64,000 nucleotides of DNA, from the NCBI GenBank assembly GCA_964106915.2, contig OZ066914.1. One strand, 5' to 3'. The translations under genes and the position numbers were made by a program. Positions 6,618 through 61,680 of this stretch are shown here, piece by piece. The notes under the pieces are model-generated. The model had not been told where the DNA came from, made no database searches, and saw nothing but the letters and a program-made list of their open reading frames with translations. The stretch is from Podarcis gaigeae. Lineage: Eukaryota. Every line of letters starts with the position of its first letter. Positions within the stretch are counted from its first letter, which is position 1.

Positions 6618-6984
6618 GTAAGTATTTTCTGTTTTCGTCACTCATGCCTTAGCAAATGTGTGAAATGCTCATGTAAGCATTATAGGACAATTCTTTTAGC
6701 TAAGGTGAAGAGATTGAAAATATCTGACTAGTTGTACAACCTTGGCTGTGGCAAGAGTTCTTTTTCCACCCAACTCAGGCAAGTTGAATAGTTTTCAGTG
6801 AGGGACAGTGAACCGGCCCCCTGCTATAAAAATTTGCTGACCTCTGGCCTAGTCCTTAACTGTGTGGGATCCTCTAATGATGCGAATATCAAAAACACAA
6901 TTTTCTGCCCACTGCCAACTATCACAGTTTGTGAGACGAAGTGGTGGTATAAATGTGACTTGCCTTCATTGTTTTTGACTGCAG

Positions 6985-7100
6985 AGATGGTGCCAAATGA
7001 TGTTCAGGCTGAGCTGAAACACTTGTATGTGGCACTAGGAGAGCTGTTACGACATTTTTGGTCCTGCTTTCCGGTTAACACACCATTCCTAGAAGAGAAG
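6985..7100 (+). CDS. GTF2H1: GTF2H1 coding exon
   Basis: actgcag|...|gtagga; [38 protein letters not shown]. Confidence 0.95.
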
Positions 7101-7982
7101 GTAGGAAGGATCTGTAGTAGGACTTGGCTTATCCTTATCATTATTGATAGACAGCAGTCTGTTCTGTAATGAAATGTGCATGCTGAGATCTGTTGATATG
7201 AAAGCTTTCTATAATGAATGGCCTGCTGCATGCAACAATTCTGTCCCAGATGAACAGCAGTGTGTGGAATGTCAGCCTGAAGAAAGTTCGCTATTGGAGC
7301 AAATGTAGTACCAGCTGATCTTGCTACCTAATCCAGTGGTTTTTTCAAATAATTTCGAAAGAGGTGATTTTTGTCTTCAGGGACTTTAAAAGAAGCTTTG
7401 AAAAATAATAAGTGCAGGAACGAAAGTTTTGCACTGCATATGTGTTCTGTATTTTAATCAGGCATACTATAGAAAGTTTAAAGTATAACAACTTTAAAGA
7501 AACTTCCACATGCTAAAACAAGTGTGTAGTCTGCTTTCCCATTCAATGGGAAAAGAAGTTTTAGGGTTCTATTTAAATATGTCTCTGCTAACACACGGTT
7601 TTTTGATCCAGTGGAAGATGCTATAAATGGAAAGTGTGAGGTGGAAGTAATTTTCACAGATATTTCCCCCCTTCCATCTGTCTGACCCACACGTGACCTC
7701 CCCCCATCTGTTTCAGAGTTGGGGGCCCTTTTTTGGAATAGTGTAGTGTGTAGCATAGGGAGCTGCAAAAGAAAAAGGGACATTTGTGGGGGTTAAACCC
7801 CCCCCCCATTTCCCCACTTGCAGAATGCTCCAGTGGATTAGAGTTATTTCAGCAGCGGAGCACAATTGGCTACAAGCATTAGGGTGAAATCCAACAGTGG
7901 AAATCTACCAGTGGAACGGATAAGTTTGAAAAAGCAAAATAGCTTCCTTTAAATGTTTGTTCTCTGATATTTTCTCTTTCAG

Positions 7983-26475: not shown

Positions 26476-27012
26476 GCATCTTTTAGTTCTCAATCACACC
26501 CTGGGTAGACTTTGTGCCTGAAAGCATACTGATCAAACAGACAAGATGTTTTGTTGCACAATGCACTGAACTTGCAAGATCCTTTGATAAGATATGTGGT
26601 TTTGTGTTGCCTGTGTACATTAGCATTCCGCTTCTTGAAAACCTCTGTCTCTCACCTGCAATGACCCTGCCAAATTTTCTAATGTCTATTTGGGGGGGAA
26701 ATGATACATATGTGCCAACAGTGGGTTGGATCCACACTAAAATTAGTTGATTGAACTTGGATCCCATGTAAATCAATGGGCAATTTACTCATGACTTTGT
26801 TCCCATTGTGAAAAAGAAGAATCTGCTAAAATTCAAATACTGCAATAACAATTCAAGCAAAATCAAGGTTCTTGCAAATTTGCAGAGTAAACTCTGTGGT
26901 GATGGGATCCATATTTGAAATGGACTGTGTTAACTTATAATCACAGCACAATTCAACAAGTGATGAAAATGAGTTGATTGTATTCTTATGTTTCCTCCCA
27001 CAGAGCTACAAG

Positions 27013-27138
27013 ATGTCTCTCAAGGAAAAGCTGATTGAAAATGTTCACAAAGAGGAACACCCTCATGCCCACAACAAGATCACCGTGGTTGGGGTTGGTG
27101 CAGTTGGCATGGCTTGTGCCATAAGCATTTTGATGAAG
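27013..27138 (+). CDS. LDHA: LDHA coding exon 1
   Basis: [42 protein letters not shown]|gtaggt; acceptor at 27003. Confidence 0.95.
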
Positions 27139-27604
27139 GTAGGTAAAATCTGTGTTTCGTGGGGCAAGATCTGTAGCCTTGCCTTTTCGTTTAGCAATAT
27201 TTTTAGCTGTTTATTTGCATTGCTGTGTTTTGAGGTTTTTCGTTGTTGTTCTTAACTGAATTTAATGTGTCACTTCATGCTACTTTGTAAGAAAGGTGAT
27301 GAACAAATACAATAATGCTAAATTTGTGTATTGCTATGTCTTTCTGTAAAAATAAAATGTTCTATAAAGCACATGTAGAGGCGTTTCCATAGACAGTCAA
27401 GTATGTTTCAATAAACCCAGTTTGTGAATACAAATCCTAACAGTGCAGCCTATGCATGCCTATTCAGAAATAAGTCCATTGGCTTCAATGGGACATACTC
27501 CAAGATCAGTGTATATAAGATTGCACTGCACACCTCAGATCTGTGCAAAATATCAACATAAGTTTACTGTAACCATGCGCTGAATTAATTTTGACCCTCC
27601 AGAC

Positions 27605-27907
27605 CAGGGGTCGGCAATGTGCAGCCCACGAAGACCATTTTACCGGCCCACAAGCTACCCCTGAACCAAGCCTCCCACTTGGTTAATCCCCCGTGTGCTG
27701 TGCTAAACTGTGGGGACTTGCACCTGAAATTGCGCCTGTGCACATGCAGACACTGGAAATTGCATCTGCGTGTGCCCAGACGCCGGAAATCGCTTGTGCG
27801 CAGGTGCAATTTTCGGCGTCTGGGCATGCGCAGATGCGATTTCCAGTGCCGTGCTGCGCCATTCCAGCCCATGGACGATCTCTGGGAGTAAACCTTGCCG
27901 ACCCCTG
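27605..27907. mobile_element. non-autonomous hAT element
   Basis: Perfect TIRs CAGGGGTCGGCAA...TTGCCGACCCCTG; 8 bp TSD ctccagac at 27597-27604 and 27908-27915; internal tandem and inverted gcgcatgcgcagacgccggaaat units. Confidence 0.88.
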
Positions 27908-28110
27908 CTCCAGACCAAACAGGAGCTCTATACAAGTTCCCTAGTTTTGCTGGGGACTGTTTATTTTTATTATTATCAAGGCCTTGGCAGGGCCTGTGGA
28001 CTGCAATTTGTCTTGGTGTATGTCTGCTTGTGCAGGCCTTCCCAGCACCACAAAATTCAGGTCTCTAAAAAAGCCAGTGGGTTGATCTATCTGTTCTTGG
28101 CTTTTTGTAG

Positions 28111-28230
<120 letters not shown>

Positions 28231-30627
28231 TAGTATTTCCCTGTCCTCTATGTACAGGCCATCTATTTCAGATGCTACATAGCAAGGCAACATCCAGTAG
28301 TTTCTCTGAGAGGGAAGCCTCTGTGCCTCTGGAAGTAGAGGTAACTTCCCTTGCCTTAGGCAAGACCAAAGTTGTGGAATGTCAATCTTTAAAGAGCTTT
28401 CACTATGGCAATGATGACTTGAAGGTAGCTGGTTTAACCAGCAGCTGACCTGCACAGAATTATACAGACCGCATTGGAGAGTTGGTGTTGTGGATAAAGG
28501 GTGTTTTGTGTGGTTTAAGTTGCATTACTTTGAAAAGCAGCATGGTTTGATAAAGTTAGCAATGAACATCAAACTTACGATACCACAAGGATAGAAAAGG
28601 CTATTTATATTAACTAGGAATTTGGTCATCACTGTTTCCTTCTGCTGGCTGAGGTGGCCTGCTCTTCTGTCCATTTCCCTCCCTACAAATGCTCACCCTT
28701 AGACAGGTCTGCTTGGCAGAACTTACAACAAATATAAGGGAAGCCTGTTTTGGCTTCTTTAGGTGCAGCAAATACTATCAATAGGGGAGTGTTGAGAGAA
28801 TGGATTATGGGTGCAGGCCTAAGATTCCTGGGAGGATGTCTTGGGGCCATAGAATAGGCAAGATCTACCCATTTGACACCAGAGATTCAGACCCTCAACA
28901 TTTGAGAGGTGTAGGTAGTTTTGGAGCATGCATCCTCACTGCTGCAAGTTTCTCCTAAGCCTAGCCCAACTGATATCAGAGCTATAATGTTGGTCGGGCC
29001 CCAGAGGAGGCCCCTGGAAGCAGCTAGGCTGCAGAATTCTCCCGGCCCTGCAAAGTGGGCAAAATTTTAGTCACACTCTTGAGCACTCTGTTACTTCCAG
29101 TGTGAGTGAAAACATTAAAACAGACACATTTAAAGCCAAAAAAGGAACATGAGCCTGGTAGGGCTTTGGATAAAGTGCCTTCAGTATAGCACTGTAAATG
29201 AATTTACCCTGGGTTTATTATATTTTTGGGTTTGAACATATCAATGTTATCTGAGACAAGCAACAAATGAATCTTGACAAATACGCTGATAACTAAAACA
29301 AAAACAAAAAAACCACACACAGAAGCAATAACAACTGGGTGTCTCCTTTTTGTTGAGTCCTCACTCCTGGTCCAAAACGAAGTATTGCAAGATTCCAAGC
29401 CAGTTCTTGCATGCTGTGGCCATTCTGCCATTGCTTCCAGTAGTATGTGGGGTTGTTAGGCTCAGCCAGGCTGGAATTGCTCAGATGTTGTTTGTATGAT
29501 AAATGAATAGCCTGATTCCTCTGGTAGTGCTTGCTTGGGGTCAAGAAGGCTTCTAAAGGATGGCAGGGAACCTGAGAACTCTGGTGTAGGGTCTCTTGTC
29601 ACACTGATGGTGGCATCTAGGACAGCATCTCTCGGATCAGGCCAGGAAGAGATGAGAGGTCTAGATAAGGGCATGTGAATTGACTTCCCTTAGTCTTTTT
29701 GCACTCCTTTAAAAAGTCGTCATCTAGAGATGATGCCTGAACAAAAACCCCTGGGAACAGGCTTTTCAGCCTTGGGAAGGTCTATGACAGAGCAAGCTGA
29801 ACAACTGGCCATAGTGTAAGAGACCAGATACCAAATAAATTGAATCCTTGTCAATCAAAAGCACAAAGCAGAGGAGCTACAGTGTAGAGAAGTGTATTGT
29901 TGCTTTTGCTAAAACTGCTGCTCTAAAACTGGCAGACAAGAGCTCTTCTTTGCTTCCTTTCCTGACCACAGTCCTTTGATAAAACTTTAAATAGCACTTA
30001 ATGGCTCGGCAAAGGGCACTTTCTCCCTGCTCCCAATGGTCAAATTGGAGAGCTTAGTCATGGTTTCCCCTTCCATTCTCTTTTCAGAGCAATACCATCT
30101 GAAAACAGTAGCTCCAGAAGGGGCCTGGGCTTTGCAGGAAAGTGGCTTGATTTTTTGTCTTAAGTTTCTAAACAGGGTCTAATTGAAATCAAAATTACAT
30201 ACATATAAAACATTTAATCCTTTTTAAGGGAGAAGTAGCAGTAGAATTATGATAGCAATAAGGGGTGTCTGAAGTCATAGCAGCTGCCCTTACATCCAGA
30301 TGAATAAAGGTGATTTAGTGCAAGCAGATATTTTACTGTTAGTTTCCAAAACACTCTAAAAACAAGTTTCCAGCTCCGAAGCTAACACCTGGAAGAACAC
30401 AGCCCGTTTCTTAGAGACGAATCATTAGGACTTCAGGTTCTCTGAGGCACAAATTCCCTTTATTCAGCTCATAATCTGCCAGTGACCAGCCCTCAAAGGT
30501 GTCTTTCTGCTCTTGTGGGCCCAATTATTCCCCTCTTCCAGTTATGCTTTGTGCATTCAATTTGTCTGGAATTGTAAAATGCATCGTGAAATGTATCTTG
30601 AACAAACAAATGTGTTTATTTTTGCAG

Positions 30628-30801
30628 ACTATGCTGTGACTGCACACTCCAAGCTGGTCATCATCACTGCTGGAGCCCGCCAGCAAGAAGGCGAGTCTCG
30701 CCTTAACTTGGTTCAGCGCAATGTGAACATCTTCAAATTCATCATTCCCAGCATTGTCAAGTACAGCCCTGACTGCAAGCTGCTTGTTGTTTCAAATCCA
30801 G
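30628..30801 (+). CDS. LDHA: LDHA coding exon 3
   Basis: [57 protein letters not shown]. Confidence 0.96.
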
Positions 30802-32395
30802 GTTGGTTGTGTCCTGCTCTTAACTGCTTATGGACCATAATTCATCCTCCAGTCCTTTGAAAGGAGAAATTGCTTGCTTCCAAGAAGGAAATCAAGGAAT
30901 CCTGAAAGCATTCGAAAAGGAAAATATCTTTTCCACCAGGACATCATGGTTTAACACTTAAGTTTAGATTCTGAAGTGGGACCTGCAACGAAATATCGTC
31001 CCATGGAGTGTTCCTGCTCAGGGTTCCATTCAGCCATGCCCTTTCCCAGAATACTCCATTCTCTTACCTTTTTCCATGTCCCCACCCTATCTACTCAGCA
31101 GCCAATCATCATTCCATGCCCACTGATGGCGCTGTGTTTCATTGGGCTGTTACAGGTCACACCCTCCCTTTTCTAAAGATTTCATGGACTTCTGGGTTCC
31201 ATAAACTTGCTCATGGTGCTGTTTTGGCTATATAAGGATCTTCATTTGAAGAATGATTTTGCTTTCTAGTATCTACGATGATTGGAACTATGGTGGTGAC
31301 AATCGTGGCTAGGGTCTGTTAAGAGATCACATCATTCCACTGTCTCATGGGAAATACATCAGTACCTCCATGTTTGATTGTTAGGGTGCAGTCTACAGGA
31401 AACGCCTAACTTTTCCACATGTAAAATGAGGTGCTTTGCCTAGTACCTAGCTAGTAGCTCATTTACACCATATTACTCTCTGTGCCAACACACTTGCACA
31501 CTCTTCTCTGATCTATTTACACAGTGGCTGCATTCAGATGCCCTGGTAAATCATGGTGGATGGACCATAGCTCAGTGTTGAAGTGTGTGTTCCTAACATA
31601 GGAAAGTTGAAGGTTCAAACCCTGACATCTCCAGATAGAACCAAGAAAGATTCCTTGGCAATGCCAAGCTGGATGGACCATGGCCCCAACTCTGTAAGGC
31701 AGCTCTTTAATTCATATGAGCCCTGGGGTCATGTTCCCACACCCAGCCCTTGTGGCTATGAGGTTGGAAGCTTTCCTTTTGATGGGTTCAGAAGAACAAA
31801 TAAACTGTAGTTAATAAGGAAGTGAAGGCTTCCCAACTTATCCTCGGGGCTGGAGAAGATGGGAAGAGGTGCAAGCCCAAGGCTCTCCTAGTCTTGCTTT
31901 GACCCCAATAAGCCATAGCTTACCATGATGTCTGGATGCAGAAGTTCAGGAGGTTAAACTAGAAACTTTGGCAAAAGGAAAGAGCTTTGGTTGCTCTGCT
32001 GGGTAAGAGCTTGGGGAGGTGTTGGGATACTTGTAAGATGCTATGTCCTGCTTCAGTCCTGCCTGCATGCCCTGAGTCCTCTGTAAGACACAGATAATTC
32101 TGGAATGGTGCTGTTAACTCACAGGGGACATCTACTAGGAAAGTCAGAACCATAGTACAAATCACTCTTGCCTGAGCACCTGATATTAAAATGAGAGGAT
32201 TGTAAAGAAGCACCTCAATATTCCCTCTGCCCTTCAACTGCTGCCTGGAGCCAGGATGGTTTCATCATTAAGGTAGCCTTGTGTAGAATAGGAGATTAAA
32301 TTAAACAGCCTCTCTTTGTGGAGAAGGATTGCCAGTGTTCTCTAAGCTTGTCTGTCTTCAATGGTGCATATGGCAATCACTTTCTAACCAAGTGA

Positions 32396-32707
<312 letters not shown>

Positions 32708-32755
32708 TGAAAAGGAGAGTAATAGAGCATTTCCCAGATCTACCTCTTGGAACGC

Positions 32756-32960
32756 AGAATCGTAGTTAGAAGGAACCTTTGAGTTAATTTAGGCTAGTCC
32801 CCTGCTTAATGCTGGATCCTCCAATGCAGGGTGCATGTACAGCATCCCTGATAAAGAACCATCCATTATCTACTTAAATGCCTGCAATGAAGGAGAGTCC
32901 ATCGCCTCCGGAGGCAGTGTTCCATTGCTGAGGAATTATTATCATTAGGAAGCATCTCCT
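32756..32960 (-). mobile_element. degenerate CR1 LINE 3' fragment
   Basis: agaatcgtagttagaaggaacc...gaaggagagtccatcgcctcc...ttccattgctg resembles the reverse complement of a CR1 3' end. Confidence 0.5.
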
Positions 32961-34181
32961 AACCCTGGGTTAGGTAACATAGTGTTCTCCGGACGTTGCT
33001 GAACTCTTATGACTCACCATGATGGGCTGATGGGGAGTTGGAATCCAACAAATGACAGCTTTTGGGAAATTTGAAGACTGCTATAGAATTGTTGACCACA
33101 TCAGACTTAGGTGCTGGGCAAACCCACAGAGAGGTTTCCATACTCTTCCCTCTGTATGGAAGTTAGGAATATAATCTAGCTGTCCCTACTGCATGAAGTA
33201 ATACTAGATGGTCTATATTTGACTTGAGCAGTTCTGTTGCAAAAGGTCAGCTTTGTAATCCAAGTAGGCCAAACCCTACCAGGCTAAATTCTACCCTTTA
33301 CTCCTAACTGGGGAGTTCACAGTAAATCCTTTTCATGTCAGAGACCCTTGCATGCTGGTGTTCAGTAAAGCAGGTACAAGTTATTTGTCTTGGCCCCTCT
33401 GTCATCCTATATTTGGGAGTTGTGTGATCTCATACAGCTCTGTACCAATACTGCCACTAGAATTCTGCTTTGGTGCATAAACTCAGATTCTACACCACTA
33501 CTCCTCTATCCCATCTCACAGCAGTGAATATAAACACAATCCCCTCTCCCCTCCCGAGTGCACTGTTCTGGGGTTTCTCTCCCTCTCTGACACCCCAAGC
33601 TAATTGGTGGTGGTGGGGAGGTAGAGGGGAAAGCCACAGTGTGCTAACACAAGTCCTTGCACAAGCTTCCATTAGCAGGATTCATTACTTGAATCTGGCC
33701 CTCAGCTGTGTACTTTGCTGCTTGCTTGCCTTAGGTGAGCAGCTGCTGCCGCCACACTCATCCTTGAATGACAGATTATATGCAGTATATGGTTGCCAAG
33801 CCCTGTGTGTGTGGTCACAGCACTTTTGCAGTCTTTCTTCTGCCCCAAGGGCTATGGACCATTTTAGGAAGATGTGTGTGCATAGCCTCAGCAGGATGAA
33901 AACCCACCCTTTTTCCTGGGTTTATGAGTTAAAAGGATCAGGTCAGTGGCTAATCCAACATGGATGAACAGAAGGATCCATCTCTACTGCCTGTTAGCCA
34001 AAGTTTAAGGGGAAGGTATGTGTGCGTAGCAAGATTCTGAGTAATTATAAAACTGTACTTGGTACATCATGCTGCATTAACTGCCCAGCTCAGATCTGTG
34101 CGAAACACTTGTGAATCTTAGTTTCTGTGAAGTTGGAAAACATTCTAGATTGCTCAGAAAAATCTTCTGCATTTTATTCAG

Positions 34182-37136: not shown

Positions 37137-37352
37137 TAGCCATCAGCCCACAAATGCAAAAGGTTTACAGAGAATAGAAAGTGCATTAATAAAGCTAGTC
37201 CTTAAAAGAAAAAAAGAAAATATATTATCCATTCAAAATATTTTACAAGTTGAATGATGTAATAACTTATTCTGGCCACTTACTGATTAAAAGGAAAAAA
37301 ATAAATGAGGATATGACCACTTGGACTACACCACTCTTCCCTAAGCCATGGG

Positions 37353-37442
37353 TCAGTAGAGATCACTGAGTCCTGCCGTTTTTCTTGCTTTCTGCATGAG
37401 TGCCCGCAGCTGAAACTGCTTGCGAGACAAGAGGCGGACGTG
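37353..37442 (-). CDS. TSG101: TSG101 exon 10 CDS
   Basis: HVRLLSRKQFQLRALMQKARKTAGLSDLY*. Confidence 0.96.
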   Translation of the reverse strand, partial: HVRLLSRKQFQLRALMQKARKTAGLSDLY

Positions 37443-37709
37443 CTGAAAAGAAAAAACAGGCCAGGGTAAATCATCTGAGCATGATCCGACAGAAGTTATA
37501 ACATTTTAATTTGATCAACTTCAATGAGACATCTTTGTAATAAATGAATATTTAGGTCCAGATTTTGAATTTAAACTTGAAAAGTAAGATACCATTTTGA
37601 TTGGCATTTTCTCTTAAGACTGTATGTCCCAATAATTTCAATGGTGTAAATTTTGACATTTTTAGATTCTTATAAAATAACTTTGTGTAATGGTGCATGT
37701 AACATATAC

Positions 37710-37843
37710 CAGTGTTTCTCAAACTTAGGTCCCCAGCTGTTGTTGGACTACAACTCCCATAATCCCTGATAACTGGTACTGCTAGCTAGGGATGATGGGA
37801 ATTGTAGTCCAACAACAGCTGAAGACCAAAGCTTCAGAAACCG
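37710..37843. mobile_element. hAT-type MITE
   Basis: cagtgtttctcaaactt end plus the shared palindromic core. Confidence 0.7.
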
Positions 37844-38310
37844 TTTTCTAGGCACGTGCAGTCACCCACACAATAACCTGAATCAGCCAAAATGGGAAAA
37901 GGTAAAGAGGGCATTTGGTTGGCCATACAGCTACAAGCACATCCTCAAGACCCAAAAGCTGAAACTGATCCCACAAAACCTGACCAGACAGTGCATTGAA
38001 TGCCTCACTCAGACCTGTTACAACAAGAATATATACACAGTGGTCCAACTCATCATGGGAAGACAAGTTATTCTGTTCTACAGGCTTATATCTTCCTGGC
38101 TGTCCAGTGTGTAAGGTTCTAAACTACAGTTTTGATGATGTGTGAGAGAGATAACAGCACTCTGGTACCATCCAATGCACTTGAAAAACCCTCCCCTCTT
38201 CCCTACATTTGAAGAGGCATTAGAGATAAGAACTAGGAACACAACTATTGGTTTCAGTGGACCAGAAAAACTGTACATGAACGTACCTTTGAATATTTAC
38301 TCAAACCTAC

Positions 38311-38550
38311 CTTTAGAAAGATATCAAGATCAATAACTCCACGTCTCAATGCTTCACCCAGGTAAAAGATGGTATCTTCAATGGCATTTTCCTCAGCATA
38401 CAAGTTCAGAATTTGTTTGTAAAGTGGCGCTGTAGGAACAATAACTTCGTCTATGTCATTATTTTCTGACTGACTCTCCATTTTTTCCAAGGCAGAACTC
38501 AGCTCTTCATCTTTCTTTTTCAGGAGGTCAATGTTCTTGTCAACTTCAGC
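38311..38550 (-). CDS. TSG101: TSG101 exon 9
   Basis: AEVDKNIDLLKKKDEELSSALEKMESQSENNDIDEVIVPTAPLYKQILNLYAEENAIEDTIFYLGEALRRGVIDLDIFLK; 240 nt. Confidence 0.96.
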
Positions 38551-39439
38551 CTAAAATAAAAAAAAAATTATAGGTTTGTTTCAAGATGCTGTGATACCTA
38601 TGTAATCAACACCCTAAATTCCCTTTTAAAGTCCATGGAAGGGAGTCCCAGGTACCACAGGAAAGAGGTTTCCCTCCTGCCCTCAAACACCTCCCATTGC
38701 ATGTGAAGAAATTACCCCCCCCCCCCACTGCTCTGAGGGCAATAATGGCAAAAGAGGTTTCAGCCTGGGGAACTTGGGACCCACTGAATCCCAAACTCTC
38801 CTGTTCCCATAACATACCTCTGGAATGGGGGGGGGGGGGGAGTACATGGTCCTGAAGCTGATGTACTCAGCTGAGTGGGCAAAGGACAGGGTAGTTGCAA
38901 AAGGAAAAAACCCAGGATGGGTGCTACAACACCACCTTTTGCCCTGCCAGCGTAAGGCCGGCAGGACTTTGGGTGTGGCAGTTTCTTTGCCTCAGTAGGA
39001 TTGCTCCGTAAGACTTTTAAGAGTATTTATGTATGGGAACAGCATTTAACTGCTTATTTAGATGTTCTCAAAATTTCACCATTACTGTGCTATTGACCTT
39101 GTAAATAACCATAGACACAGGACAAATAATTGCAATTTCTCTGCAGTTTTAAGACCACTATCCTCACCTGCAAATAATGAATCAGTGGTGAGGAATAGAT
39201 GCCTAGAAAGAAAAGGGCTACATTTTCCATTTCCTATAACTGCCTTACCTACCACACAATGGATGCCAAGAGCTACAGGCAACAGAAACTACTGCAAGGA
39301 AGGAAATGTTCCAGCTGCTTTGAGCAACGAAAAAGGCTTTGTTGTTTGAAAAGACATGGGAAGTCATGAGCCCAATGCTTTTAATTGCTTAAAAGGGAAA
39401 AAAAAACAAGGTATATGGCAAGCCTTTTCGTTTGCTTAC

Positions 39440-39642
39440 CACTTCCTGGTCTAGGCGAGTTACCATCTCTTCAAGCTTTTGGTGACCTTTTTTCAAGTCT
39501 TCCTCTGTGCGCTTCAAGGCATTGAGCTCTGCCTGGGCACGGTCCATTTCTTCTTTCATTCTCCATCTCAACTTATCACTGACTGCTGAAATAAGCGAAG
39601 CTCGAATGGTATCTTCGCTAATGGTGCCATCTCTGCTGGGAC
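39440..39642 (-). CDS. TSG101: TSG101 exon 8
   Basis: PSRDGTISEDTIRASLISAVSDKLRWRMKEEMDRAQAELNALKRTEEDLKKGHQKLEEMVTRLDQEV; 203 nt. Confidence 0.96.
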
Positions 39643-45600: not shown

Positions 45601-47337
45601 GCTATATAGTTCTCCCCCAATCTAGTGGGAAATTTCCAGAGTGGTATGCAAAGAGAGGTTATGTAAAAAAATATAAATGTAATCCAAGCATTCATCTTAA
45701 ACTGCAGTAAAGTTCAATTCTAGTCTGCTACATTCTATTCCTGTTGCCCTTGCATTCCAGAATCACATTTGTGCTACATTTTAGCTTCCAACATCAACCT
45801 ACAAGATTGATATCATTATTTGGAAGTACTGACCATTTAAAACCACAATACCAACAAATCCAGAATTCGTCTGGATATTGACCTGATTTCAGAGAAGCTG
45901 GGAAGGTGAAGTAAGCCACTGAAGTTAAGCTCTCTCTTGTTTGTGAAAGGCACATTACATCATAAAAGCAATTTACATAAAATGTGCTACCAAAACACTG
46001 AAGGATATTGTCTCATGTGGCTTCAATCACAACCAACTCTCCTTAAGAATAATCAAGTTCACGGCAGGGTTCTTTTAAAATAAAAAAAGCATATGCTTCC
46101 CTGTAATTTGTTTCCTAGTAAATACTAACGGTGATTGTGAAAAATGGTCGTTCTATTAGATTATATTTTAAAAGCAAATTCTGATGCAGATGATCTGCCT
46201 TTTTTCCAGGAAAGTTGACACAGTAATGCCAAAGCAAAACATGGCAAAACTGCCATACAGTCACTTTCAGACAGTTCAACAAGCTTCAAGGTAACCAGAA
46301 TATGTACCTTCACACAGTTTTAACAAGTGCCATAATAGCTCTGAGCAGTCATGATCTTTTGCAATGAATGTCTTGCAGAGTAACATTTAAAACTTTCAGC
46401 GTCTAAAACTTATATAGGATTTTGGATGTGACATTCCTGGTTGAATAAGCCATGAAGGAGTATCTGGTGCAAGTATCTTGTGTTTATGCTGGTTTTAGTA
46501 CTTTGAGCCCAGGCTCTTTAACTCAGTTTCCCATTATGTCTGAAATTGGGAGCACTGGTTTAATGTTGATTTACTAACCAGCATCTGAAATCTGATTTGC
46601 AAACTTGTATTAAACCTCAATTCCCCATTTCAGAGGAAAGTGTGACTTAAAAGCAGCTTGGGCTGAACCTGGCACACATGGGGAGGCAGGAATAAGCTTG
46701 ATGCTTATTCTTGCTTAATGAACTATGGTTTATTAAGAACTTTACCTCTGAGCCTGCCATATGTTAATAAACACTCATGAAGCATAAGTGATTAACATAT
46801 AACTAGAGTAACATGTGAGTCCATGTATAATGAAGCCCTAATGCTTCAGTTTGTTTTCCTGCTCTAGTCAGACTCACCTTTTCCAAAGTTACATATTTTT
46901 TATGATGTTTTTTTCTGATCTACCCACATAAAATAGCTTTGTAAGCTATTACTGCACCCATATTTTAGGTAGCTATCACCTCATGCTATTCACTGAGCAT
47001 TTTTCGGATGGGAATATCAATCAGGGAAACTAAACTGCTTGGCAGTGTCTCTAAGCACACTGTAGAAGCAAACTGAATTCAGTGGGGTGGGGAAGTAAAC
47101 AGAATTAAAAAAAAAAAACAGTTAAATATATCGGCAAATGTCTTACTGCAGTGGTTGCAGAACAATGCCACTAGCAATTACATTACTAAATTAATACCCA
47201 CCACCATATTAACAGTGCAATTCCACTGCCTGAAAATTCAAATTACCACCGTTCACAACCTTCTAATAATCTCTGTCTGGAGAGACCTTCCATACTTGCT
47301 TAAACTGAAATCTATTATTCCTTCTCCAAAGAAAAAG

Positions 47338-47915
47338 TTAGATCAAAGTCTCCAAAACACTTAATAAATCCAGGTTGAAGACATCTGTGCCACTTTCAGA
47401 CAAGAGAACACCATCTAGATGGAACAATCCTGGAGACTCTGGGACAAGTGAATCGTGTTTGATTATAATCCCTCCAATACGTTCCATAAAACTGCAGATT
47501 TCCCGATTTACTCTCTTCCTGCTTTTCTCCATAAATTCATGGGACATATCTTGGTTCCATGCTTTGCGGGGTACAATATTAGACCAGACAAGGATGCTGT
47601 TCTTGAATGTTATCTTAATATGTATTATATCTTTCTTCATTTGTCTTATGATATCATAATCTGCGTATGTCCCAAGGTCATTTCCTCCTAGATGGATCAC
47701 CAATATATCAGGATCTGTTAGGCGCCGCCGTGTGTGCAATAGGCTGGGTATCAACTGATCCCACGTCATGCCACTCTTTCCTAGCCAATGTAGTTTGGCA
47801 TCCTCCAGTCGAATGCCCAACTGTGGGCCAAAGCTTCTTTCAAGTGCTCTTTTTTCTGCCCAGAAAACGTAAGAATGACCACATATCCATACCTGTTTCT
47901 GCTTTCTTCTGCCAT
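47338..47915 (-). CDS. SGNH/GDSL-hydrolase-like coding exon in TSG101 intron 7; putative alternative terminal exon of TSG101, possibly retrotransposon (Ngaro)-derived
   Basis: Uninterrupted ~192-codon frame with SGNH blocks in order: I VWICGHSY, II WLGKSG, III PDILVIHLGGNDLG, V DGVLLS. Acceptor tgtttgttctcttaatagcag| is in phase 1, matching TSG101 exon 7. TAA at 47338-47340. Confidence 0.75.
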
Positions 47916-49986
47916 CTGCTATTAAGAGAACAAACATACATTAATGCTTCATAAATTTTGTGGCCCAAGCACCTCCTGAAAACTTTTTTCAGTGTTGTCT
48001 GAATTATTCCATGTAAAAATCAAAACATGAGACACCTCTATCTTAAAATACATGGCATAATAATCCATAAAGTCAACTCTTTATTTGAAGATTGGTGTGT
48101 AAAGTTTACAGGTAAAAATGCCTGCATTCAAGTTATAAGATCAATGGAAAGGAATGCATGCTCATGTACCCTTTTGATCAATCTTACAAGAGCAAGTGAA
48201 AATATCTTTTCTAAATAAAGTTGCTAACAATCCATTTAGATCTTGATAAAGTATATTGGTTTGATAGATGTGCTCTACTCAGAATGAAGTTCTTCCAGAT
48301 TTTTTTCCAAAATTAACAGAAGGTCAGGAGCAGAAGTCCATACCTTTCAAGCAGACCAAAAAGAGAAAGCTTCGACTGTTAAGAAAGCCCAGGGAGCAGA
48401 GTTATACTTCTCTATTAAATCTTATGTAGAAATTTATGTAACCATTTCCACGCTTTGCCTGACAGGATTATTTTTTGTTGCCACATGACACCTCCATTTC
48501 TAAAAATTCATTTTCTGAACAAAACGCTAGAAAGCTTGCACTAGGGATAGATTTTCTATTACTGCCCTGAAAGAATAGTAATTTGATCTCTTCTAAACAA
48601 TGTAGACCTCCAGTATTAAACTACAGAAAATTATCAGTTTTACATTTCCCCTGCAATTTTCAACTTGTTTTTGTTTATGAAGTCTTTTCCTGACATGCAA
48701 TCCAGTCAATTTTATAATTGTAAAAATGGTTTTATTGTTTTTAGAGTTTGCATCTTTTGTATTTGATCTTATTGTACATAGCTTCAATAGCATATGGCTC
48801 TGAAGCAGTCCATAGACCTGTAAAATAACAATAACGATAATAGTAATAGCTCAACAAAAGTGATGATAATTTTTGGAGTTCAAATATATTCTATGTGACA
48901 TTGGACAAGAAAATAGTGGATGATGATGTGGCCAGGGATCTTGCAGTCTTTGTGCTAAATAATAATGTGCGTTCTAAATTATACTCTTTGAGGGTTTCAA
49001 GTTTTTGCTTATCACTAGAGGCAACAATACGTTCAGATTCTTAGGACTTCTCTCCTGAACAGGTCTTTTAGTTCTGGGCTAAGCAGTAAAACAGGTGAGC
49101 AAGCATTTCAGCACCCAAGAATTACACTGAATGTGAAACAGAAGAAAGCTGTTGATTGGCACCTTTAGCTTACAGATCAACAAACTTCACAAGATGAAGA
49201 TCTGGTGATGGTAGCTGGGCTACTTCATGAACGGCACTTCTACACTTGGATCACACACAAAAAGAGTGGGGAAAAATTGCAGTTTGGGAGTGTACTGTTA
49301 AACATGATGGGAGTCAAGGATAGCTTGGTTCGCTTCCAGTTAAGCACGGAACTCAACTGTATTTTCAGTGCTGACTCGACAACAATCAAGGCTTCTTCAC
49401 ATCATCCTTAGGTACTGTTCTCCATCCTTGGCTGACATAGCAAAAGGCTTGTAAATAGACTGTAGTACTGCATCTTGGCTGCAGTTACTCCACCCTGGCT
49501 ACAGGCCTCTTCATTCTTGTGCCCAAATGATGCTGCTGTTCAAGTTCCTGGTACATTCAGTGGTGTGATCAAATGAAACCCACCCCTTTCTCATCATTGA
49601 AAAGTTCATGACTACAAGATCATTCCCCCAGTTAATAAGAACATAATAAATATGTAGGCTTAAAAAAAAAGAGGCTTCGCGCTTTAATTTATCTTGGACC
49701 TGCAAACATAATATTTTCAAACACATGTGAACTTCATTACATAAAACAGTTCAATAAAAAAGAAGATTGTTGAACAGTGAAAAGAGTTAATGATTGTTCC
49801 ATCAATCAAACAATGGAGAAAAAAATGAACATCTAGCATGGTTAAAGTGTAATGTAACTGATGTTTTTGCCACGAGGCACCTAATGCCCATCTCAGAAAT
49901 AGGTGTATTTGGATTTGCTTTATGCTGTATATTTAGAATGAGCAATCTCATTACATTCGGAAAAAGACACTTTCAAAGCTACTCAC

Positions 49987-50084
49987 CCACAGTAGTTACA
50001 GGAGGCTGAGAAGGGTAGTGTTGTGTGCTAGTTGTTGGTGGAAATGATCCGCTAGGGGGAGGGTAAGGATAGCTTGGGTAACCA
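49987..50084 (-). CDS. TSG101: TSG101 exon 7
   Basis: GYPSYPYPPPSGSFPPTTSTQHYPSQPPVTTV+G|gtgagt; 98 nt, phase-1 donor. Confidence 0.92.
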
Positions 50085-52196
50085 CTTGAAAGGGGAGGGG
50101 GAGAAAGACACAGTGTTATGCATTCTTTAGTTAATATTTCCATTCATAAGCAATTTTTTTTAACGTTTAAACAATTTATAATAGACAAACAGAATTTAAA
50201 AAAGAGCCACTGATGCAGATATAAACGGTCAGAGTAATATTCAAGACCATGAGAAATTTGTTGTCATCCATAGATTTCAGAGGTATCAATGTTTTAATCA
50301 ATGTTATTCAGATATGTATAAATAAATTTCAAGTTCCCTGATCAAAGTTTCTTCACATTTGTGGATTAAAGCTGAAGACAGGTAGAGGCACTCAGTCTAA
50401 TTATTCATGGTTCATTCTGTTAGCAGTTAACAGGTTTGTACTTTGTTGCATTATTTTCATTTGAAAAGGTCTATGTTGCCTTGGTGGTTTCATTTACAGA
50501 GGGGAGACTGAGCAGGCTTCTCCAACTGCCAGAGCATGTACACATTTTAGAGTTTCTGCATGCTACGTTACTTTCCTGAAAAGTTAGTGCCCTCTATTTC
50601 CACTCAGTTGGTGTCATGCACTCCTTTTTCAGAATCAGTTATATAATGCATATAGCGATGGCAGAACTAATAAGTCATCAACAGTAGGAAACTAGAGACA
50701 ATAATACCACAGGATATGAAAAAGGGAGATACAATACAGTACATGTGGGATTTCTACACTCAGAACTGTGTCTACCGTGAACAAGCCTTACTGTTTAATT
50801 CATTGTACTAACACTAGCCAACAACTAAAGGGAGAAAATGAGCCGATGTGTAGAAATAAAGCAGTCCTCAGTCCTCTTCTGTCTCCATACATTAAAAGAA
50901 CATGTGCAAAAGGTAGCAGTGTATTATATCAAGGTTGGTGTTAGACTTTAGTAGACTCTCAGACTGGGCCTCTCTCAGTTCCCCTGCCCAACAATGTGTC
51001 TTCCCTTGGGCACTCTGCCCACCAATTCTGCTGCCACCAGTCATTTCTCACTCCCTCCGGTTGTGCTTATCCAGCAGATGGCAGCGGTGTTTTTGATGGA
51101 AAACAGGCTACTACTCAGCTCCGATCTTCAGCAGCAGATGGCTGCCATCTCAGAGACCCCAAATGAAATGCCCATTTGTGAGCACTGCATTTTGGGAGTC
51201 CTGAGATGGTGGCCACCCACCACGGACTGGAGTTTGAGTGGTAGTTTGGCTCCCATATGAAAATGGCACCTGCTGATGGAGGGTAGTGATTGGTGCATTG
51301 GACAGAGATCCCAACGGTGGTGGAAATGCCAGGCAGGGTGTCAATGGGGGTGATAGCAAGACTGGCATCAGCTCCAATGGGGCGCTGCCAGAACACATGG
51401 GCTGCAGCAGTTGCTCCAGTACGTTGGGTTCTAATCCTGGGTCTGTTTTGGAGTTGCTCCACCACCACCCCCCCACACTGTCTATTGCTGGCTCCACCCT
51501 CAGACTTATACGTATTGGGCAGAAAGTCTGAAGGGGAAACTTACACACGTTCAGCAGAAGGTACACAGGCTCCTCCATGTAACTAGGAGTCCTGTGGATG
51601 TGTGGATGCAAATTTTGTGGAGGAGCCTGTGTGCATGAAGCTGAACTTACATACATTCTCCCAACAGATCTTCTGCCCAGTGCACAAAGGTCTGGGGTAT
51701 GAGCTGGAGGGAACAGAGACATCAGAGACAGAAAAAAAACATGAATAGCTGTGCACCCCCCTGCATGTGTTCTTTTAACATGGGATGCCTAGGTTTTTTA
51801 TATATAAAAGTCCTCTCATAAGGAGAGGATGCAGCCAAATAATGTTAAGAATGCAGGAAGCAAGCTGAAAAGTTTTATAAAAAGGCAAGAACGTAAGTCA
51901 TTTTAGAAGTATAGGTTTACAATGACACCAATTTTGCTCATTATACACTTAATCATTTCTTTACTCAAATGAAGGGGCCTTAAATGCAACCAGGGTTTTT
52001 GAGGACTGTATTTAAATAACAACATATAAAAGACCCTGACAACACCTAGACAAAACTGAACTCAAGATGAATGGAATACAAATCTAATGCTTTTAAAGTC
52101 CATCACTCTCAACTTCAGAAATGGGCACAACATCACATTGTTCAATACTGCCAGTGTAGTCTATTGGATCAGCAGATTCAGCAAACTATAGCTTAC

Positions 52197-52263
52197 CTTG
52201 GGTTAGGTGGTGGTCCAGGAGGGAAATGAGGCATTCCACTTGGCATTCCTGGCATATAGGAAG
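52197..52263 (-). CDS. TSG101: TSG101 exon 6
   Basis: SYMPGMPSGMPHFPPGPPPNP; 67 nt, AG/GT bounded. Confidence 0.92.
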
Positions 52264-54692: not shown

Positions 54693-54819
54693 AGTTTGGT
54701 GGTCCTGTTGCCTGGTAAGGTGGGTAGGCTGCTGAAATGGTAGGCCGAGAGAAGACTGGAGGTTCTTCTCCAAACACCACAATCATCACTTGAATCAAGC
54801 CAATCAAATCTGATTGTGG
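54693..54819 (-). CDS. TSG101: TSG101 exon 5
   Basis: PQSDLIGLIQVMIVVFGEEPPVFSRPTISAAYPPYQATGPPN; 127 nt. Confidence 0.95.
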
Positions 54820-55315: not shown

Positions 55316-55479
55316 ATGTTTCCATTCATGTAGATATGGAAGGTATATCTTGCCATTTGCATCCACGTGCTTCCCAGTTTTAATTGTCATTGAACTAGTT
55401 GGCTTAACAAAACAGATTGGTGGATTGTATGGATATGTATCCAACAGCCACAGACATATTGGGATATTGTATGTGTTAC
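55316..55479 (-). CDS. TSG101: TSG101 exon 4
   Basis: [54 protein letters not shown]; 164 nt. Confidence 0.96.
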
Positions 55480-55904: not shown

Positions 55905-55970
55905 CTTTGTAATTTACAGGAATGGTTCCTGTGAGGCTCATCAGTTCTCTTGATGAACCATCATTAAAAA
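55905..55970 (-). CDS. TSG101: TSG101 exon 3
   Basis: FNDGSSRELMSLTGTIPVNYK; 66 nt. Confidence 0.94.
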
Positions 55971-56708: not shown

Positions 56709-56793
56709 CATATCCATCCATTACAGGCTTGAGGTCTTTGTACTGGGTAATAACACTGACAGTTTCCTGAACAGTCAAGTCTCTGTACTTGTA
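56709..56793 (-). CDS. TSG101: TSG101 exon 2
   Basis: YKYRDLTVQETVSVITQYKDLKPVMDGY; 85 nt. Confidence 0.95.
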
Positions 56794-60989: not shown

Positions 60990-61680
60990 AAAGGCGTTGG
61001 GCGCTAAGGGTGATCCCTTTTTGGACTGGACAGACCAGGGACTATTTCGGCTCGCTCTTTCCCTTTGCGGACTCCCAGGAGGATCATTCTCGCGACCCAC
61101 GAAATTAGAGACCCTTCCCATTCCTGCTGCCAGAAAGCCGGCCTCGTTTATTCGTGTCTGGCTAGGATATTTTTGTGGGGTTTTTTCCCCCCTCTGGCAG
61201 CAGGAAGAAGAGAAAGATAATGACTCAGGAGGAAGTTTCGCTCGGGAAGCGGCGTGAGGTGAGGGGAGAGGGGCGGCCTGGAGGCCCCGCCGGGTGGGCG
61301 AGCGCGGAGGAATCCCCGAGGCTGTTCCCCCGGCAGAAGCCCGCTGGGAGGGGCTCCCCGGCCGGCCTCGCCGTTACCTTGCCAAGCATCTTCTTCAGCT
61401 GGCTCTCCGACACGGCCATGGCGGCAGCGGCGGCGGCAGCGGGCCCTGCCGGCCGCCGGTGGTCGTCGTTCCGCGCCCCTCCTGCCGCTCCTCCGACTCC
61501 CCGCGCGAACGAGGAAACCTGCCCCGGCCTCCCTTCCGGTGCTTCCTTTCCACCCGTTTCCGTTCGGCGGCGCGGCGTGACCTCACTTCCGGCGACCAGG
61601 TGCCGCATGCGCGCGAGCGTAGACTGCGGTCACTGACGGGCCCATAGAGATAGCAACGTGGAGAGGCGCCGCCTGGTTTT
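60990..61680 (-). promoter_or_regulatory. TSG101 CpG-island promoter
   Basis: GC/CpG-rich around exon 1; ETS/GABP CCGGAAG motifs (~61532-61540, 61584-61592); NRF1-like GCATGCGC 61605-61612; no TATA evident. Confidence 0.8.
61378..61419 (-). CDS. TSG101: TSG101 exon 1 CDS
   Basis: GCCGCCATGG Kozak; MAVSESQLKKMLGK|gtaac. Confidence 0.95.

Follow-up and report, generated by a model that had tools for sequence, protein, structure and literature searches.

Does a reading frame probably left by a retrotransposon inside an intron of TSG101 provide this trafficking gene with a second ending? The question arises from a 64,000-nucleotide stretch of the genome of the lizard Podarcis gaigeae (GenBank assembly GCA_964106915.2, contig OZ066914.1; hereafter the window), in which TSG101 is encoded on the minus strand. 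About 2.07 kb into intron 7 (49986 to 39643, minus) there is a branch-point-like TTAAT (47944-47940), a pyrimidine tract and a tandem acceptor made of TAG (47921-47919) and CAG (47918-47916), so that the acceptor region covers 47916..47944 on the minus strand. These signals are followed by a stop-free frame of 200 codons (47940-47338, minus) that closes with TAA at 47340-47338. The coding part of the putative alternative last exon (47338..47915, minus) would encode a 192-amino-acid (aa) domain with an SGNH fold, very probably derived from the fourth open reading frame (ORF) of an Ngaro-like retrotransposon. Judged from the letters, TSG101 would have a second, transposon-derived last exon that replaces the complex-building half of the protein by an enzyme-like domain.

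Exon 7 (98 nt, 49987..50084, minus) is common to both isoforms and ends in phase 1 at the donor CTGTGG/gtgagt. Joined to the CAG acceptor it reads PVTTV-D-GRRK in frame, and the TAG acceptor is also in frame, giving PVTTV-A-D-GRRK with one Ala more. The 649 coding nt of exons 1-7 and the 578 nt of the alternative exon predict a 408-aa protein, 404 residues of which are identical in a database protein from Podarcis raffonei (P0002). The sole in-frame ATG of the open frame 5' of block I, at 47937, is within the pyrimidine tract. Another in-frame ATG, at 47952, is shut off by a stop, and that at 47915, the first within the exon, is in a different frame. Past the stop codon, AATAAA first occurs at 46729..46734 (minus) and is a candidate polyadenylation signal of the alternative exon. 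With a host exon in frame 5' of a same-strand intronic transposon ORF, and with an acceptor and a polyadenylation signal present, the locus has the layout of an exon trap. The original prediction, a note made from the sequence of the window, had proposed the frame, TTAAT, tandem acceptor, exon 7 end, both in-frame joins, length of the product, position of the ATG codons and AATAAA, and every one held when re-read and translated on the minus strand.

Four parts make up TSG101, the UEV domain, a proline-rich region, a coiled coil and the steadiness box (PMC4884989). The fusion isoform skips the canonical exons 8-10 (37351..39642, minus), which encode the coiled coil, PTAP and steadiness box, and so does not have the make-up of an ESCRT-I subunit. 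In P0002, Pfam detected no domains but UEV and GDSL. Assembly of ESCRT-I is the task of the C-terminal half of TSG101, and the GPPxxxY motif of the other half binds CEP55; that motif is present in all five sequences checked.

The isoform is already public, machine-annotated under the TSG101 name as 'TSG101 isoform X1/X2'. A search for longer proteins with the 192-aa frame gave 36 matches, 23 of them TSG101 fusions with a domain identity of 70-98% (one partial without UEV, another an 808-aa read-through model). The database fusion proteins, in RefSeq, GenBank and UniRef, consist of UEV, proline-rich region and SGNH domain in 406-411 aa and come in both acceptor forms (e.g., XP_028588832, XP_023593445, XP_072475760 and XP_038620735). 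The domain order predicted for the lizard, without coiled coil or steadiness box, is thus annotated across amniotes. More than 50 named species encode the fusion: 29 squamates, 16 turtles, three crocodilians, six marsupials, the echidna, two manatees and a tenrec, as counted from the members of nine fusion clusters (15 of 18 members for one), with the remaining small clusters left out. Of 90 records examined, 83 hold both the TSG101-side (UEV-side) and the block V motifs. The Ala is included in 58 of these 83 and excluded in 22, with three not parsed, and both forms are annotated in lizards, snakes, turtles, marsupials and the echidna. A listing of both acceptor forms by annotation pipelines would reflect transcript evidence; as two such forms are unlikely from ab initio prediction, transcript support for the fusion is likely. 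No fusion record names the origin, the catalytic loss or the range of the domain, and the SGNH label is mostly missing (PF13472 is shown for 3 of 23).

We found no TSG101 fusion from birds, boreoeutherians, amphibians or fish in searches of predicted proteins, and a search seeded with the manatee domain gave no further placental cluster among 30 matches. Since the searches covered predicted proteins, loss of the exon in birds and boreoeutherians is something we infer. Three models were rejected as real isoforms. The 808-aa alligator protein P0021 (UEVLD-TSG101-SGNH), as well as P0216 and P0235 (UEV-SGNH-coiled-coil), have truncated domains and look like read-through or ab initio joins. In the literature searched, which left most subscription journals and supplements outside, we found neither the isoform described nor an account of its origin from Ngaro, of the lost catalysis or of the species range; a supplement table of domesticated genes could list the exon. 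The TSG101 passages of a review of ESCRT splicing (PMC8393842) include no such isoform. The suggestion that the isoform was undescribed stands for the literature searched and fails for the databases.

How strongly is the domain conserved? Measured against P0002, two other lacertids have an identity of 92-93% and six other squamates one of 77-82%. Two turtles and a crocodile reach 74-78%, and wallaby, echidna and manatee 70-76%. In the same comparison UEV is 88-100% and the proline-rich region 75-100% identical. In a neutral simulation without insertions or deletions, 5 of 1000 runs kept an open frame at 0.3 substitutions per site; at 1.0 none of 1000 did, and identity had dropped to 20%. By this comparison the identity among lizard, turtle, crocodile and mammal domains is far above the neutral expectation. 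Among 42 distinct domain sequences 80 of the 192 positions are invariant, with the strongest conservation in the N-terminal half and the last 32 residues. The DNA of 46600-48100 matches itself alone in the 1.5-Gb genome, in a search that skips very common words. At the level of the protein, these figures point to purifying selection on a single orthologous locus. The frame is open in the relatives and the next protein match in the genome is only 36% identical, so neither of the outcomes named beforehand as contrary to the isoform, a frameshift in relatives or near-identical genomic copies, was seen. Because the exon is single-copy and conserved, we rejected a recent transposon fragment. The isoform is very probably functional and conserved.

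The domain has many relatives in the lizard's own genome, with at least 149 other protein matches of 27-36% identity when 150 of 1190 candidates were scored. We fetched six related loci with their flanks (L013-L018). Four of the six (L014, L016, L017 and L018) encode a reverse transcriptase (RT) frame, a recombinase-like frame and an SGNH frame in that order, and L015 is a partial copy amid other repeats. Pfam on two loci placed RVT_1 above and phage-integrase families below the cut-off; the tyrosine recombinase (YR) of L014 was under it at an E value of 2e-5. In another locus (L024, G000:C2:97133351-97141561) a copy of the 5' repeat lies near the 3' end, flanked on each side by a second repeat, with 100% identity, an A1...B1-A2-B2 layout of split direct repeats. 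Ngaro-like elements are defined by such repeats and a fourth, SGNH ORF (10.1101/2021.08.05.455354). The order in Ngaro retrotransposons is gag-RT-YR-SGNH, and according to that source no function of the SGNH ORF is proven. The complete identity of the L024 repeats suggests a recent insertion of this family in the lizard genome. The exon is 31% identical to the fourth ORF of the lizard Ngaro-like element with split direct repeats (E 5e-35). Homology to the fourth ORF of elements that have an RT, a YR and split direct repeats makes an Ngaro origin of the exon very probable. The original prediction had proposed a transposon-derived domain; this is supported, and the element can now be named as an Ngaro-like YR retrotransposon. 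While the Ngaro SGNH ORFs covered in the source above are amphibian, they are abundant here in a squamate.

The exon belongs to the same domain family as the Ngaro SGNH ORF and differs from it in being single-copy, slow and without the catalytic His, with no RT, YR or repeats seen around it. Intron 7 holds no long frame resembling gag, RT/RNase H or YR that would indicate a live Ngaro element, repeats having been checked only for the tandem type. All TSG101 domains form one clade, with a FastTree support of 1.0 among 203 domains and an IQ-TREE support of 100/100 in a chosen 50 of the 203. The stem of the clade is long (0.57) and its inner branches are short; end branches are about 0.03-0.19, and those of most free relatives about 0.4-1.2. 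Among single-domain proteins outside the clade, a multicopy caecilian family (P0062) scores best. FastTree had hinted at an origin independent of a fish gene, the teleost cold-shock-domain fusion. We withdrew this, as the approximately unbiased (AU) test does not reject one clade, and hence a shared origin with the fish fusion (p-AU 0.52).

Is the domain an enzyme? Pfam matched the frame to Lipase_GDSL_2 at an E value of 2.4e-4, under the curated cut-off, and a search of solved structures by sequence returned nothing significant (best E 0.068). The AlphaFold model of the domain has an SGNH fold (pLDDT 96.2, pTM 0.92). It aligns with 4rw0 at a VIA-align Z of 19.2 and a root-mean-square deviation (rmsd) of 2.5 A over 172 residues, with PAF-AH at Z 18.7, and with the OSK domain of Oskar at Z 16.9 and 2.6 A over 160 residues; Foldseek gave a TM of about 0.7 to GDSL lipases and PAF-AH. 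According to the model, the SGNH alpha/beta/alpha fold is retained. In the ESM Atlas we found generic SGNH clusters and a TSG101 cluster, with no functional name among them.

The SGNH blocks are defined in PMC10792757, where the acid of block V is three residues before the His (D-x-x-H). Ser15, Gly49 and Asn79 of blocks I, II and III are kept in 42 of 42 distinct sequences. Block V reads D-G-V-L and not D-G-x-H, so the exon domain lacks the His of an active SGNH hydrolase. The catalytic His is Leu171 in 83 of 83 fusion records and in all 42 distinct sequences. The acid has changed from Asp to Asn in 20 of the 83 records (11 of 42 distinct sequences), including those of Anolis, Pogona, Sphaerodactylus, Podarcis muralis, crocodilians and afrotherians. 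In the block V column, 30 out of 30 TSG101-type domains have Leu. Of the unclassified relatives, 116 of 135 have His there, as do 23 of 27 domains of the fish type and 7 of the 11 lizard loci. The change therefore occurred on the stem of the clade and became fixed. An 'intact hydrolase', as the exon had first been described, is for this reason wrong with respect to catalysis. The residues suggest a pseudo-enzyme that kept the nucleophile and the oxyanion hole, lost its base and lets the acid drift, and we hold with good confidence that the domain carries out no normal catalysis.

Taking these results together, we consider it fairly probable that domestication of an Ngaro domain as a 3' exon trap preceded the amniote split and yielded an adaptor of UEV, proline-rich region and pseudo-SGNH domain that acts outside ESCRT-I and may bind a lipid or acyl group. 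The SGNH ORF in TSG101 intron 7 would be the accessory ORF of an Ngaro-like (tyrosine-recombinase) retrotransposon, left there before mammals and reptiles separated, and it would have been captured as an alternative last exon through the phase-1 tandem acceptor. The transcript would presumably use the exon 7 donor and receive its poly(A) tail near 46.7 kb; as the alternative exon is terminal, the transcript should escape nonsense-mediated decay. The fusion protein would keep UEV, which binds ubiquitin and P(S/T)AP, and the proline-rich region; with the coiled coil and steadiness box absent it presumably cannot join ESCRT-I. Its pseudo-SGNH domain may bind, and not cleave, an anionic phospholipid or acyl group. 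The adaptor could then bring UEV to a membrane or acylated target and capture ubiquitinated or PTAP cargo there independently of ESCRT-I.

That the domain serves to bind a lipid or acyl group is a tentative assignment, possible and so far preferred because it retains its pocket residues, has 16 conserved basic residues and has a precedent in a retroelement esterase that binds liposomes. The conserved residues include 16 Lys/Arg versus 10 Asp/Glu, and the median isoelectric point of TSG101-type domains is 9.4. The esterase of ZfL2-1 ORF1p (PDB 4c1b), which binds anionic lipids and liposomes even with active-site mutations (PMC3905857), is like our domain a basic, retroelement-borne SGNH fold (Foldseek E 5e-7). 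ZfL2-1 differs in being a non-LTR element that encodes an active enzyme and in not being a host fusion (PMC3905857).

Several observations weigh against the proposed adaptor or parts of it. The evidence for expression is database annotation and thus second-hand. A metagenome scan for orthologous exon DNA gave three loci of 28-32% identity and no orthologue. Neither the donor subfamily nor the deep relations are resolved by the trees. The Ngaro relatives are more basic: the median net charge is +5 for the domain, +12 for the 11 lizard loci and +8 for the 135 others, which weakens the case for charge-driven membrane binding. The ZfL2-1 esterase is a distant comparison (16% identity; rmsd 19 A due to its domain swap). 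Finally, His166 is invariant in 42 of 42 sequences and specific to the clade, the relatives having mostly Arg; on sequence grounds it could in principle be a relocated base.

The main rival to lipid binding is that, in the manner of Oskar, the domain of the same isoform binds RNA or a protein partner, as an OSK-like or PAF-AH-like module tying ubiquitinated or PTAP proteins to a ribonucleoprotein or scaffold. We consider this unlikely, while giving it more weight than any other alternative. The OSK domain has an SGNH fold without catalytic residues and binds RNA (PMC5785220, PMC10792757), and the match of the model to OSK noted above, the conserved basic residues (R3, R4, K5, K7, K22, R23, R27, R63, R64, R117 and K118) and the fusion of a teleost relative of the domain to cold-shock-domain proteins all agree with such a role. 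However, OSK ranks only 22nd in the fold search, amid many ordinary esterases. OSK also lost its Ser, whereas the exon domain keeps Ser, Gly and Asn in every distinct sequence, suggesting a kept pocket. In addition, the ZfL2-1 esterase is reported to show no binding of oligo-(A) RNA (PMC3905857).

A second possibility, which we judge improbable, is a decoy in defense: a natural inhibitor resembling the TSG-5' fragment, one that would sit on PTAP late domains or target Ngaro particles via SGNH-SGNH contact. The genome of the lizard itself has the 149 or more related ORFs, no bird or boreoeutherian record appeared in the predicted-protein searches, and birds and boreoeutherians may have lost Ngaro-type elements. 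N-terminal TSG101 fragments are reported to block the Gag-TSG101 interaction (PMC3766686), and the authors who described the CSB-PGBD3 fusion speculate on anti-transposon defense (PMC2268245). Truncation alone would suffice for a decoy, though, and the 80 invariant positions speak for a host partner or ligand that does not change. Where arms-race proteins typically evolve fast, the domain is slow, and it is only 27-36% identical to the present lizard elements. As a pure decoy needs no folded domain with so many invariant positions, the adaptor is more likely than the decoy.

That the domain is still an enzyme, with a base supplied by His166 or a partner subunit, seems to us more improbable again. 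Ser15, Gly49, Asn79 and the clade-specific His166 are all invariant, and chimeric two-chain active sites are described for the SGNH fold (PMC10792757), but the canonical base is Leu everywhere and the acid has become Asn in several lineages. We give very little weight to the isoform as a regulator of full-length TSG101, with UEV soaking up the ligase Tal/LRSAM1 or the exon diverting transcripts by early polyadenylation or as a poison cassette via 46878. Tal is reported to bind TSG101 mainly via its PTAP motif (PMC4884989), and 460 nt past the stop there is a perfect donor, yet neither role requires a conserved 192-residue fold. This donor, AAG/GTGAGT at 46872..46880 (minus) in the putative 3' untranslated region (UTR), lies about 140 nt before AATAAA. 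The consensus is matched once in the window, with about 0.012 expected in the 604-nt UTR, and was noticed post hoc; from its sequence the site might be a poison-cassette donor, a U1 site or a damper of polyadenylation. Least credible is a separate nested gene, of 199 aa from the ATG at 47937 or with a first exon of its own, that would make the fusion models annotation artifacts: the Logan-derived P0037-P0040 and P0262 do start MFVLLIADGRRK and, contrary to our reading, two turtle records (P0041 and P0225) annotate the exon as its own locus, but the crocodilian frame P0042 has Cys at the Met of ATG 47937, so that a pyrimidine tract explains the conservation of these letters better than a start codon would, the phase fits exon 7 in all groups, and NCBI annotates both tandem-acceptor forms, with fusion models found in UniRef too.

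Returning to the adaptor captured as an exon trap, we compared it with known systems. The mechanism is already known from CSB-PGBD3, in which a domesticated intronic transposon ORF is an alternative 3' terminal exon and a conserved fusion exists beside the full-length protein (PMC2268245). CSB-PGBD3 differs in that it has a whole piggyBac transposase, is restricted to primates, is at least 43 million years old and is nuclear (PMC2268245). The TSG101 fusion instead has an accessory domain of a YR retrotransposon, is amniote-wide, would be a trafficking adaptor and is catalytically disabled. The amniote-wide range corresponds to about 320 million years. Like our domain, the OSK domain of Oskar (PDB 5a4a) is a catalytically dead SGNH fold serving as the C-terminal binding module of an adaptor; it differs in having lost Ser too, in binding RNA and in its place in insect germ plasm, and the comparison is one of fold and not of sequence kinship. 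TSG-5' and TSG delta154-1054 are further variants of TSG101 that lack the ESCRT-I core and compete for Tal or for ligands with PTAP. As far as they are described, they differ in being artificial or tumor-associated truncations with no added domain and no known conservation. The original prediction had drawn a parallel with UEVLD, the UEV-LDH fusion gene that adjoins TSG101 and appears in the read-through model P0021. The parallel stands as an analogy, UEV being joined to an enzyme-like C-terminal domain in both; UEVLD is a separate duplicated gene with a host LDH domain, neither an alternative exon nor transposon-derived, and CSB-PGBD3 is the closer precedent.

What would the isoform mean for TSG101? 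It may be, and we put this only a little below probable, that early amniotes came to make two TSG101 proteins from one gene, an ESCRT-I subunit and a UEV adaptor steered by a pseudo-esterase, with the second opening an unrecognized ESCRT-I-independent route for sorting or defense. Reptiles, monotremes, marsupials and afrotherians would have kept it, while birds and the boreoeutherian ancestors of human and mouse would each have lost it, two losses that would explain why it was overlooked; the domain may have been captured repeatedly. TSG101 is an essential, heavily studied trafficking gene and a host factor of viral budding, examined mostly in human and mouse, where no record of the exon appeared. 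An isoform strongly constrained since the amniote ancestor implies a function that human and mouse models cannot show. The exon would also be a very old exon-trap domestication, and in the literature searched we found no description of host fusions from the DIRS/Ngaro retrotransposon order. It further offers a handle on the role of the Ngaro SGNH ORF, as the host kept the fold and the pocket and discarded catalysis.

Other SGNH domains of this kind appear in host genes. A second lizard exon (G000:C2:37621072-37621620; L013:4552-5163, minus) has a phase-1 acceptor, and a CpG-rich first exon upstream (about L013:8450-8800) has a phase-1 donor. Its blocks read GNS and DVNDL, the catalytic His is lost, and it appears to be domesticated; its identity to tuatara A0A8D0GUF0 (P0152) is 60%, and at that level it is single. 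The teleost si:dkeyp-121d4.3 proteins (P0024-P0030 and relatives; 1400-2000 aa) combine cold-shock domains with a C-terminal SGNH domain whose triad is mostly intact. Their SGNH domains form one clade (100/100), and they are probably another domestication. The lizard-tuatara and teleost cases suggest that vertebrate genes captured the Ngaro SGNH domain repeatedly; if true, it is a recurrent donor of binding modules. At G000:C19:78466139-78543579 five diverged SGNH frames (L004, L011 and three more) are found in about 80 kb, and the two that were read, L004 and L011, are without the catalytic His. P0055-P0063 contain two to seven tandem degenerate SGNH domains, and the five frames are possibly exons of such a multi-domain gene. 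A C-terminal SGNH domain of this Ngaro-related family also ends P0036 (a frog TRIM-like protein of 692 aa with RING/B-box) and P0032 (Elgaria, 1429 aa), which may be further captures or annotation joins.

All ten exons of TSG101 were placed by translation on the minus strand of the window. The coding part of exon 1 (61378..61419, with ATG at 61419) is followed by the UEV exons 2 (56709..56793), 3 (55905..55970) and 4 (55316..55479). Exon 5 (54693..54819) encodes the end of UEV and the start of both the proline-rich region and the GPPxxxY motif, and exon 6 (52197..52263) continues the proline-rich region. The acceptor of exon 7 is AAG, not CAG or TAG (50085-50087, minus), and exon 8 starts at 39642. 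Exons at about 26900-33000 (plus), which we take to be those of an LDH gene, lie tail to tail with TSG101, and further to the left of TSG101 is what is presumably a GTF2H1-like exon (about 6800-7200, plus). LDH and GTF2H1-like exons beside TSG101 are the neighborhood to be expected.

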